From UHGV virus genome UHGV-0072281: a stretch of DNA of 64,000 nt. One strand, given 5' to 3'. Below are positions 61,644-63,509 of this stretch, in pieces. The DNA comes from a virus. The notes under the pieces were generated by a model that was given only the letters and a program-made list of their open reading frames with translations, was not told the origin of the DNA and ran no database searches. The translations under genes and the position numbers were made by a program. Positions within the stretch are counted from its first letter, which is position 1; each line of letters opens with the position of its first letter.

Positions 61644-62234
61644 ATGGCTGAACGTTGGACTAAAGAAGGTATTATTGAATCCAAAACCGATTTGGAAGGT
61701 GGGTACGTAAACGACCCTGACGACAAAGGTGGAGAAACCTGTCACGGGGTAACCTTAAAAACTGCACGCGAGTACGGATACACAGGGAAAATGAAAGACC
61801 TAACGCGCGCACAAGCGTTTGATATTTACGATCGGGGTTGGTGGAAGAAACTCAAACTCGATGAAATTTTCGCTATCTCACCGTTACTCGCAGACCGGAT
61901 GTTTGATTTTGGTATTAACGCAGGGCGTGCTAACTGTGTGAAATCGTTACAACGTATTCTCAACGTTTTAAACAACGAAGGGAAACTTTACGCAGATATT
62001 GACACCGACGGCGGTATGGGTCCTAAGACACTGGGTGCGTTGAACGCGTACCTGAAATATCGTAAAGATGAAGGATTGAGCATTTTAATCTTTGCGTTAA
62101 TCTCTCACCAAGTAACTTACTACACGGAAATCTCCGAAAAACGTAAGAGAAACGAGAAATACACCTACGGCTGGTACGCACGTGTGTTTAGAGAAATGGC
62201 AGATTATACGGTAAAAGCGGGATTAGTAAAATGA
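61644..62234 (+). CDS. endolysin, glycoside hydrolase family 108-type
   Basis: N-terminal EGGYVNDPDDKGGETCHGVT matches the GH108 signature; AGGAG RBS. Confidence 0.75.
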   Translation: MAERWTKEGIIESKTDLEGGYVNDPDDKGGETCHGVTLKTAREYGYTGKMKDLTRAQAFDIYDRGWWKKLKLDEIFAISPLLADRMFDFGINAGRANCVKSLQRILNVLNNEGKLYADIDTDGGMGPKTLGALNAYLKYRKDEGLSILIFALISHQVTYYTEISEKRKRNEKYTYGWYARVFREMADYTVKAGLVK

Positions 62235-62335
62235 ACTGGTTTGCTAAACTCTTAGCGTTATTGTGGAAAGCGTTAACGTCTGGTCGAAAACGTAAAGACG
62301 AAAAACGTGGGCAAGAGTTCTTCTGGTTTTTGTAA
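62231..62335 (+). CDS. 34-aa amphipathic micro-ORF overlapping the endolysin stop; lysis-associated peptide candidate
   Basis: ATGA overlap; sequence MNWFAKLLALLWKALTSGRKRKDEKRGQEFFWFL. Below track cutoff. Confidence 0.3.
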   Translation: MNWFAKLLALLWKALTSGRKRKDEKRGQEFFWFL

Positions 62336-62350
62336 GGAAAGGTGTGGGTA

Positions 62351-63016
62351 ATGGAGAAGCTTCAATATAAACGTTTAGACAATAAGTGGTTTGTATTAAC
62401 GGAGGATTACCATTATCCGTTTACGTTACGTGAGATTTATCACGACCACGTACACTTAGACCGTGCGGTTTATTTAACGGGTGTATTGCCTGACACGCAA
62501 CTGTGGTTAACAGCACCTAAAGGGTTCGTTACTGATTTAGCGTCAATTCCTGAACACCTCCAGGGAATTTTCCATCCTGACGGACCGTGGGCACCTGCGG
62601 CCTGCATTCACGACTTACTGTATCAAAAATGTAACACGGAGCGTAGCTATCCCATGACACCGGGTGGTAACGTTTCGCGTATTATCGATAAAGAGTTCTC
62701 TGACTTAACATTCCTGCGTATTATGCAGTCGTTGGAAATCTCACCGTATATCTGCCAAACGTTTTATAAAGCCGTGGCGGGGTTCGGTTGGGATGCTTAC
62801 GTAGACCCTAACGCGAAACCGTCTTATACCACTAACGATTACCGTACGTTAGATTACAATCGAAACTATTTGTTCGTTCGTGAGTTTAAGGAGCCTGCTA
62901 TTCCTGACCACGAACGTGTTGATATCACCACAGGTTGTCCCGTTAATGTCAAATACCTGAACATCAAACGGGCTTTTCTGTCTGGGAGGGAAGATGTTTC
63001 ATCCAAATCCGAGTAA
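62351..63016 (+). CDS. hypothetical protein, possibly DUF1353-like (~221 aa)
   Basis: ATG 62351; FVTDLASIPEHL...IHDLLY resembles a DUF1353-type motif, from memory. Confidence 0.4.
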   Translation: MEKLQYKRLDNKWFVLTEDYHYPFTLREIYHDHVHLDRAVYLTGVLPDTQLWLTAPKGFVTDLASIPEHLQGIFHPDGPWAPAACIHDLLYQKCNTERSYPMTPGGNVSRIIDKEFSDLTFLRIMQSLEISPYICQTFYKAVAGFGWDAYVDPNAKPSYTTNDYRTLDYNRNYLFVREFKEPAIPDHERVDITTGCPVNVKYLNIKRAFLSGREDVSSKSE

Positions 63017-63509
63017 CTTTAAACTCAAAGAGTTAGTACCACAATCGTACATCGCCAAATACGGTGATTCTGCAATTCGGTTTATGAACCCGTTGTTAAT
63101 GATCTCCCTACAACAGATTCGTAACCGTTTCGGCAGAATGGTGATTAACTCGTCTGCTGCGCAACAGCGTGGCCTAAGAACCTTAGACTTTTTCATCAAC
63201 CAAGAAAAGCCTAAGGGTGGTAACTATAAACAACGTGCGTTACAACTCTACTCTGATTCAGGGAGTCAACACAAGTTCGGTAATGCATTTGACGCGACAC
63301 TGTTAGACTCAACGGTAAAACAAGTCCACGACTATATCGCCGCTAATCCTGACGAATTTCCGTTCATTCATTTTATCGAATGCGACATCAGTTGGTTGCA
63401 TATCGACGTTCGTAACCAACCGAATATCACGTTCTGGTCACCGAATCGCGGTACTGTGAAAGTCGTGAAACAAAGCCCTATCGATTGGAGCGCCTTAGTT
63501 AAAATCTAA
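62994..63509 (+). CDS. peptidase M15-type (L-alanyl-D-glutamate peptidase-like) cell-wall hydrolase
   Basis: HKFGNAFDA (H-x-x-G-x-A-x-D) and WLHIDVR (W-x-H-x-D) zinc-binding motifs. Confidence 0.55.
   Translation: MFHPNPSNFKLKELVPQSYIAKYGDSAIRFMNPLLMISLQQIRNRFGRMVINSSAAQQRGLRTLDFFINQEKPKGGNYKQRALQLYSDSGSQHKFGNAFDATLLDSTVKQVHDYIAANPDEFPFIHFIECDISWLHIDVRNQPNITFWSPNRGTVKVVKQSPIDWSALVKI

Follow-up and report, generated by a model that had tools for sequence, protein, structure and literature searches.

A predicted phospholipase A2 and a conserved 34-residue peptide encoded between two murein hydrolases in a putative lysis operon of an SPN3US-like jumbo phage

The lysis of host cells by nucleus-forming jumbo phages has been little described, and a locus near one end of the viral sequence UHGV-0072281 raises the question of how such a phage breaks the envelope of its host. 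The stretch of DNA analysed here, called the window, comprises 64,000 nucleotides, and the locus consists of four co-oriented open reading frames (ORFs) on the plus strand at 61644-63509, overlapping or closely spaced and flanked by two terminator-like hairpins. An earlier note, made from the letters alone, had read it as a lysis region in which two different peptidoglycan hydrolases lie on either side of a possible DUF1353-like gene, with a 34-residue micro-ORF overlapping the endolysin stop codon and no obvious holin. This description of the four ORFs is accurate, and the distance of 1 kb given between the hydrolases is roughly right, since 760 bp separate the stop codon of the first from the start of the second. 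We propose, with slightly better than even confidence, that the locus is a late lysis operon in which two cytoplasmic murein hydrolases are combined with a phospholipase A2 (PLA2) and a cationic peptide that would disrupt membranes, most plausibly the outer one.

The source of the window is a distant SPN3US-like jumbo phage, related to Seoulvirus and Erskinevirus and also akin to the Erwinia phages of the Erskine and Agrican types, for which a genome size of 225 kb is used here. A megablast search of the window against known phages returned zero matches and blastn detected only 65-70% nucleotide identity to them. Contigs from IMG/VR (L005-L008 and L011) encode proteins identical or 92-98% identical to those of the window. 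The 5.5 kb lying 3' of the window end were taken from one near-identical contig locus, L005, and the source-clade contig was followed about 50 kb downstream in five hops to locate counterparts of lysis candidates. The operon itself is present, partly annotated, in deposited genomes: gene order and peptide overlap in Salmonella phage SPN3US (gp156-gp158) and in Erwinia phage Stratton (gp172-gp174) are those of the window, with protein identities of 57-64% for the first hydrolase (GH108) and the DUF1353 protein and 76-80% for the second hydrolase (M15-like). Erskineviruses lack the M15 gene that the window has at this place.

The third gene of the operon, at 62351-63016 on the plus strand, encodes a protein of 221 residues matching DUF1353 (PF07087) in Pfam with 54.7 bits, against a gathering score of 22.5 (E=8.1e-15). 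A GTG at 62342 would give 224 residues; the ATG at 62351 is the likelier start because the DUF1353 proteins of relatives begin at an ATG with MEKL. A member of this family, the 125-residue TtaP of the typhoid-toxin islet, was demonstrated in 2024 to be a phospholipase A2, distantly related to the group XIV secreted enzymes, with catalytic residues H70, D71 and D85, of which the last abolishes activity when changed to alanine (D85A; JBC, PMC11525133). Among 55 diverse homologues of the phage protein, G58, D62, S65, H87, D88, D118, V142 and G146 are invariant, and H87, D88 and D118 correspond to the H70/D71/D85 pattern of TtaP (a His, the adjacent Asp and a downstream Asp), TtaP being compared through its published residues. 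The loop between the HD pair and the distal Asp spans 16-35 residues and is shortest among the small members of the family. A Foldseek search of the PDB with a model of the DUF1353 protein and a profile search of PDB sequences with the family were both negative. From family membership and residue pattern, the gene product looks like a phospholipase A2 and is predicted to be mislabelled as 'tail assembly chaperone', the name that phrog_1158 gives to DUF1353 and that GenBank records repeat. The earlier note had assigned no role to its possible DUF1353-like gene; it missed the kinship with TtaP, and hence a candidate membrane-attacking enzyme within the operon.

Taken at its word, the label would make DUF1353 a true tail or tail-fibre assembly factor lying between endolysin genes, with the peptide as a minor accessory and a conventional holin and spanin encoded elsewhere. 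Gene neighbourhoods speak to this reading from both sides. Contigs of other viruses supplied 35 non-redundant DUF1353 loci and, around them, 123 neighbour ORFs, among which the commonest Pfam family was Phage_holin_4_1 (6); five murein-hydrolase families were also encountered, namely Peptidase_M15_4 (3) and SLT, Phage_lysozyme, Amidase_2 and Amidase_3 (1 each). PHROGs likewise returned holin (6) and four endolysin families, together with tail and tail-fibre families, and DUF1353 often follows tail-fibre and DUF4376 genes. One locus, L029, displays the succession tail fibre, DUF4376 protein, M15_4 endolysin, a 97-residue protein with an N-terminal transmembrane (TM) segment, DUF1353 and Phage_holin_4_1, and agrees with the window in the order endolysin, small membrane protein, DUF1353. 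TM proteins account for 16 of the 35 immediate DUF1353 neighbours versus 40 of 205 background ORFs, a surplus that is suggestive only, the ORF calls being crude and the loci partly related. The position of DUF1353 at the boundary of tail-fibre and lysis genes explains how the 'chaperone' label could arise; by itself it does not choose between lysis and tail assembly. The choice rests on other grounds: we found no experimental basis for the label, the invariant residues form a catalytic-type H-D…D set and not a chaperone surface, the characterised member of the family is an enzyme (PMC11525133), and in the source phage the gene is not beside tail genes, since the operon interrupts an array of DUF7941 paralogues, whose products are head proteins in SPN3US. 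A role in tail assembly is thus improbable in our judgement.

Between the first hydrolase gene and DUF1353 lies the micro-ORF, at 62231-62335 on the plus strand, which encodes a cationic (+5) peptide of 34 residues, MNWFAKLLALLWKALTSGRKRKDEKRGQEFFWFL. Its ATG overlaps the TGA of the GH108 gene as ATGA, as the earlier note had described, and this overlap of start and stop codons suggests translational coupling. A peptide of the pattern M(K.)NWF..L[ML].A...AL....R[RK][KQ]R, with an ATGA or GTGA overlap, is found in Stratton, phiEaH2, the contig L010, SPN3US, SPLA3 and pEa_SNUABM_29, so that both sequence and overlap are kept at a distance of about 60% protein identity. In Stratton it is annotated as gp173, with 35 residues and the same 4-nt overlap; in SPN3US the counterpart, MKQNWFAALMKAIWRALVFAARRKRNDPPSNSA, is an unannotated 33-residue ORF, here ORF-A, overlapping the gp156 stop codon. 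Between the window and the related contig L006, the micro-ORF shows 10 synonymous and 2 non-synonymous differences, a ratio of non-synonymous to synonymous divergence (pN/pS) of 0.05 that matches the 0.04-0.08 of the flanking genes; read in either of the other frames, the differences divide as 3/8 and 2/9 (synonymous/non-synonymous), and stop codons occur. Because of this frame-specific purifying selection and of its deep conservation, the micro-ORF is very likely translated and a real gene, and the prospect of an untranslated ORF, which the earlier note had considered, finds no support.

The character of the peptide is less clear-cut than the note had made it by calling it amphipathic. When the peptide is drawn as a helical wheel, the residues N, K, K, T, S and A do gather on one face of about 120 degrees, a narrow polar face on an N-terminal helix, but 2308 of 5000 shuffled versions of the peptide attain its hydrophobic moment of 0.51, and amphipathicity was rejected as a statistical signal. 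Its best 18-residue Eisenberg mean is 0.39, versus 0.64-0.78 in the TM micro-ORFs of relatives. All relatives carry a small hydrophobic or amphipathic peptide gene between GH108 and DUF1353, of varying sequence type: Agrican-type phages have a 50-residue ORF with a C-terminal TM segment at this position and two further contigs a 37-residue TM ORF. In Seoul- and Erskineviruses an additional ORF-B starts at an ATG inside ORF-A, in the +1 frame, and encodes …GFFKLLRAIF.RRV, the codons for RRKR of ORF-A doubling as its GGAG Shine-Dalgarno sequence; Seoulviruses have a further ORF-C for a 30-residue single-TM peptide. Three overlapping micro-ORFs in about 290 nt are an unusual arrangement; the micro-ORF coordinates are 5709-5810 and 5795-5947 in SPN3US (L003; JN641803), and 4830-4937 and approximately 4895-4981 in Stratton (L004). 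The single 34-residue ORF of the window clade is possibly a fusion of ORF-A with a remnant of ORF-B. A frameshift fusion of the peptide with GH108 was also considered and rejected: a -1 slip on A-AAA-TGA is feasible in the window and in Stratton, SPN3US (C-AAA-TGA) and pEa_SNUABM_29 (AAG-TGA) have no slippery context, TtsA-family structures end where GH108 ends, and the conserved feature is the coupling of start and stop codons.

The two enzymes that enclose the peptide and the phospholipase candidate are better known in kind. The first gene (61644-62234, plus strand, 196 residues; phrog_315 'endolysin') encodes a Glyco_hydro_108 domain (83.2 bits against a gathering score of 21.2, E=1.9e-23) followed by PG_binding_3 (61.4 bits against 24.6, E=9.8e-17; both Pfam). 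Its closest solved structures, 6v3z_A and 6v40_A, belong to the TtsA family and align over residues 7-179 with E of about 1e-44; LEGGYVNDPDDKGGET aligns with KEGGYVNHPDDKGGPT of 6v3z_A at the EGGY…DxGG.T motif, which reads EGGY…DKGG here and whose N-terminal Glu would be the catalytic residue, as in TtsA. The N-terminus, MAERWTKEGIIESKTDLEGG, is hydrophilic and has no signal peptide, signal-arrest-release (SAR) domain or hydrophobic window, which answers the question that the note had asked of this endolysin. The best reading of the product is a predicted cytoplasmic muramidase of the TtsA type. The last gene (62994-63509, plus strand) encodes 171 residues that the note had called an M15-type peptidase. 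Pfam falls short of this assignment, Peptidase_M15_3 scoring 14.8 bits under a cut-off of 23.2 (E=0.032) over residues 9-55 only, and a search of PDB sequences gave no match; the fold and the zinc ligands bear it out, since LAS-fold enzymes (VldE, Ply500, LysB4, VanXY and the T5 endolysin) are among the fold matches and H93-x6-D100 and H136-x-D138 are invariant in 21 homologues. The N-terminus of this M15/LAS-fold zinc peptidase, MFHPNPSNFKLKELVPQSY, is again hydrophilic, with neither signal peptide nor SAR domain.

The four-gene block looks like a single transcription unit because terminator-like hairpins precede and follow it. The first, GGGTGGGG-TAAT-CCCCACCC with a T-run, was detected by a consensus scan at 61586-61607 on the plus strand, where it ends the upstream DUF7941 gene and forms the 5' boundary of the operon; Stratton, SPN3US and pEa_SNUABM_29 have an equivalent hairpin before their GH108 gene. 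The second, a bidirectional terminator-like hairpin with an 11-bp stem at 63591-63615, is the 3' boundary and is shared with a convergent lipoprotein gene. Within the block, the M15 start overlaps the 3' end of DUF1353 by 23 nt and is preceded by a GGGAGGG Shine-Dalgarno sequence. A scan for sigma-70 promoters showed no enrichment (5 found, 5.8 expected), as is to be expected because the phage uses its own RNA polymerases, and a conserved promoter motif was not seen upstream of GH108. The operon and the lipoprotein gene together form an island within the array of DUF7941 paralogues (60240-61581 in the window; 7862-9036 in L005), which counts 17 members in SPN3US, reported there as head proteins.

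This setting among virion structural genes is what one might expect if the hydrolases and the phospholipase were carried in the virion as entry enzymes opening the envelope for DNA injection. Capsid-borne PLA2 domains are known in some animal viruses, as in parvovirus VP1, where the domain is used for entry. Traces of the M15 homologue gp158 were reported in SPN3US virions and not in tailless heads (PMC5105663), and were afterwards attributed to probable non-specific contamination (PMC5694885). In the published mass-spectrometry table of SPN3US virions the entries run 154, 155, 160, so that neither gp156 (GH108) nor gp157 (DUF1353) is among them. Since the operon products are also small single-domain proteins with no tail-attachment domain, we hold a role in entry to be very improbable.

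In the lysis operon that we favour, the GH108 muramidase would cut the glycan strands and the M15/LAS zinc peptidase the peptide part of the murein. None of the three enzymes carries an export signal, and they would therefore reach the periplasm only after a breach of the inner membrane; once out, the hydrolases would destroy the sacculus. The phospholipase is expected to hydrolyse the phospholipid inner leaflet of the outer membrane, yielding lysophospholipids and fatty acids, and the cationic peptide, acting in the manner of a disruptin or an antimicrobial peptide, would join it in breaking that membrane, a step normally performed by spanins. Peptide and phospholipase may act on the inner membrane as well and weaken it. 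As for the primary holin, its gene most likely lies elsewhere in the 225-kb genome. Gene structure, families and folds, the conservation of the peptide and the selection on it, the lack of the homologues in SPN3US virions and the recurrence of DUF1353 in lysis cassettes are observed; enzymatic activities, targets, timing and the membrane attacked are inferred.

The search for this holin used as TM criterion a 19-residue Kyte-Doolittle window of at least 1.6. None of the four operon products has such a window, in agreement with the earlier note, which had seen no classical multi-TM holin. A free multi-TM ORF was found neither within about 20 kb upstream of the operon nor in the 5.5 kb past the window end in L005, where a canonical holin immediately outside the window would have stood; that interval holds a lipoprotein gene, two DUF7941 genes, a gene for a DUF4376 protein and radical-SAM genes. 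In the complete, PHROG-annotated genome of the relative SPLA3 no feature bears the name holin or spanin, and no word beginning 'holin' occurs in a review of jumbo-phage biology from 2026. These absences in and beside the operon and from the SPLA3 annotation, the lack of export signals on the operon enzymes and the constant presence of a membrane-active peptide gene between GH108 and DUF1353 all suit a fully holin-independent, lipolytic lysis, for which the four genes would be complete: peptide and PLA2 would permeabilise the inner membrane from the cytoplasm, release the hydrolases and afterwards break down the outer membrane. Depolarisation of membranes by small cationic or hydrophobic peptides is indeed known from type I toxins and antimicrobial peptides. 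We nevertheless consider this course of events unlikely. With a PLA2 constitutively active in the cytoplasm, the timing of lysis would be poorly controlled; in other phages, as at L029, a bona fide Phage_holin_4_1 gene accompanies DUF1353, which thus does not stand in for the holin there; and candidate holins do exist in the genome.

One candidate is the 192-residue product of window positions 24168-24746 (plus strand), in which a soluble N-terminus of about 100 residues is followed by TM segments at 107-125 and 136-154 and by a C-terminal tail that is charged. This protein belongs to phrog_8722, of unassigned function, is present in 62 of 62 SPN3US-like phage records, and its SPN3US homologue, gp86, is not in the virion table. 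A hydropathy scan of SPLA3 recovered the 2-TM homologue of this protein, small TM ORFs clustered beside an SLT transglycosylase gene and a spanin-like pair, in PHROG families with no assigned function. Source-clade counterparts of the cluster and of the pair sit 34-43 kb downstream of the operon. At 34-38 kb, a second envelope-related cluster (L124, reverse complement, 316-803, 2594-3307 and 3877-4356) encodes two single-TM micro-proteins of 66 and 49 residues, an SLT with a cleavable-looking signal peptide and a 2-TM protein of 159 residues. The spanin-like pair follows at about 43 kb (L124, reverse complement, 8024-8527 and 8531-8986), its members being 51% and 45% identical to the SPLA3 proteins. 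In SPLA3 (190375-191373) the pair comprises a coiled-coil, Pro-rich protein with an N-terminal TM segment and then a lipoprotein with an LLTGC lipobox, canonical in Seoulvirus; the second member of the window clade has a signal peptide, MKSLLFIMILCVGLVSNGYG, and no canonical lipobox. An IMG/VR search with the SPLA3 spanin-like lipoprotein matched only SPN3US. NCBIfam and Pfam gave nothing informative on the convergent lipoprotein or on the TM candidates. Within the window and the following 5.5 kb, the only ORFs with a lipobox are one of 47 residues (5456-5599) and the 159-residue convergent lipoprotein, neither of which lies beside an i-spanin-like gene. The absence of a holin is therefore true of the neighbourhood of the operon and is not established for the genome, nor is holin-less lysis; by calling the release mechanism unclear for want of a holin, the earlier note overstated the case, given the TM proteins and spanin-like pair downstream and the 2-TM protein at 24168-24746.

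Several of these observations, with others, weigh against the lysis operon in the form that we propose. With a spanin-like pair elsewhere in the genome, an outer-membrane disruptor may already be supplied; this pair, present in SPLA3 with homologues in the window clade, would also suit DUF1353 as a tail-assembly factor, although the missing canonical lipobox in the window clade tells against such a use of it. The adjacency of DUF1353 to tail-fibre and DUF4376 genes in other phages is consistent by position with the 'tail assembly' label. In 65 other viral loci neither GH108 nor the M15 family of the window is found beside DUF1353, and of the loci sampled only those of this phage group have GH108 adjacent to it. 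The peptide has an amphipathic moment not above that of its shuffles and no true TM segment. S. Typhi deleted for TtaP showed no phenotype of the envelope, and TtaP is dispensable for toxin release (PMC11525133).

One of the closest known counterparts of the operon is the typhoid-toxin islet of Salmonella, which also encodes the GH108 muramidase TtsA (PMC11525133), so that both families, GH108 and DUF1353, occur in one small cluster as they do here. TtsA-dependent release requires an added outer-membrane perturbant, for example a cationic peptide (PMC11525133). There the perturbant is supplied from outside, whereas the phage operon encodes a cationic peptide of its own, along with an M15 peptidase. 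The bacterial pair serves toxin secretion and the phage proteins a lytic virus; with 221 residues against the 125 of TtaP, the phage DUF1353 protein has in addition an N-terminal beta-rich region and a C-terminal extension.

For the peptide, a parallel is offered by the disruptin gp28 of phage phiKT, a helical protein of 56 residues and charge +7, with no TM domain, encoded directly after the endolysin (bioRxiv 10.1101/515445). Compared by features only, the window peptide is likewise small (34 residues), cationic (+5) and encoded right after an endolysin gene. It differs in that its N-terminal half is far more hydrophobic than gp28, which is described as hydrophilic, and in that phiKT has an adjacent 4-TM holin and the window operon does not. 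For phage WO, a lytic cassette has been proposed in which a patatin-type PLA2 is paired with a small single-TM protein, and a homologue of the latter adjoins a GH108 lysozyme in related prophages (PMC9203015). The likeness, which extends to LysB, lies in a lysis cassette whose lipid esterase is directed at the outer barrier of lipid; the WO patatin and the cutinase-like LysB are unrelated to the DUF1353/group XIII-XIV PLA2 fold, and the WO case is itself a hypothesis. Mycobacteriophage LysB acts on mycolyl-arabinogalactan.

The convergent gene that shares the 3' hairpin occupies 63620-64000 on the minus strand with its 3' part and is available at full length in L005 (7280-7759). It encodes a predicted outer-membrane lipoprotein of 159 residues, MLKRILVVVAFVMTLAGC..., with an LAGC lipobox and Ala at +2, assigned to phrog_9559 (function unassigned) and devoid of Pfam or NCBIfam matches. 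The gene keeps its position next to the operon in SPN3US (gp159), Stratton (gp175) and pEa_SNUABM_29, and the protein is not in the SPN3US virion list; as a conserved neighbour it need not belong to the system, and a part in superinfection exclusion or in lysis is a guess.

Synonymous divergence (pS) between the window and L005 is uneven from gene to gene, at 0.20 for GH108, 0.05 for the micro-ORF, 0.03 for DUF1353 and 0.17 for M15; such differences within one phage pair indicate recent recombination with breakpoints inside the operon. Elsewhere in the window, two paralogues of about 145 residues (phrog_8484; 57918-60073) flank a 394-residue ORF (58380-59564) that has no PHROG match and an apparent internal duplication (…IGKGEADEFMR…NDTLTVL… and …IGKEDADTFMR…NDTLTIL…). 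At 41281-41687 (plus strand), adjacent overlapping paralogues of 70 and 65 residues encode small proteins that contain Cys, are either anchored at the N-terminus or secreted, and match no family, and a 69-residue ORF of SPLA3 (115224-115433) is similar to them. A 685-residue antisense ORF (9702-11759, minus strand) lies wholly inside the 761-residue plus-strand gene at 9534-11819 and probably represents a shadow ORF rather than a gene.

Of the five papers naming DUF1353 that a full-text search found, none relates it to phage lysis. What appears to be new here is the recognition of the 'chaperone' as a PLA2-family enzyme in lysis cassettes, of conserved micro-ORFs left unannotated in SPN3US and of the link to TtsA and TtaP. 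A broader reading, which we put forward tentatively and hold to be rather doubtful as a whole, is that SPN3US-like jumbo phages, and with them many smaller phages of Gram-negative hosts in which DUF1353 adjoins a holin or endolysin gene, disrupt the envelope by a separate class of lysis protein, a PLA2 assisted by a tiny membrane peptide that is co-translated, alongside or instead of spanins and disruptins and here possibly instead of a holin, the TtsA/TtaP pair being a domesticated remnant of such a cassette.

The conserved and mostly unannotated micro-ORFs indicate that, even in well-studied phages such as SPN3US, some genes of the lysis cassettes have so far escaped notice. Muramidase, peptidase, PLA2 and cationic peptide would together make up a natural four-part toolkit against Gram-negative bacteria. 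If DUF1353 proteins are lysis phospholipases, thousands of phage genes annotated as 'tail assembly chaperone' would be mis-annotated, the role of TtaP would gain a testable model in which envelope perturbation is coupled to a GH108 muramidase, and phages would possess a further mechanism for breaching the outer membrane beside spanins and disruptins.

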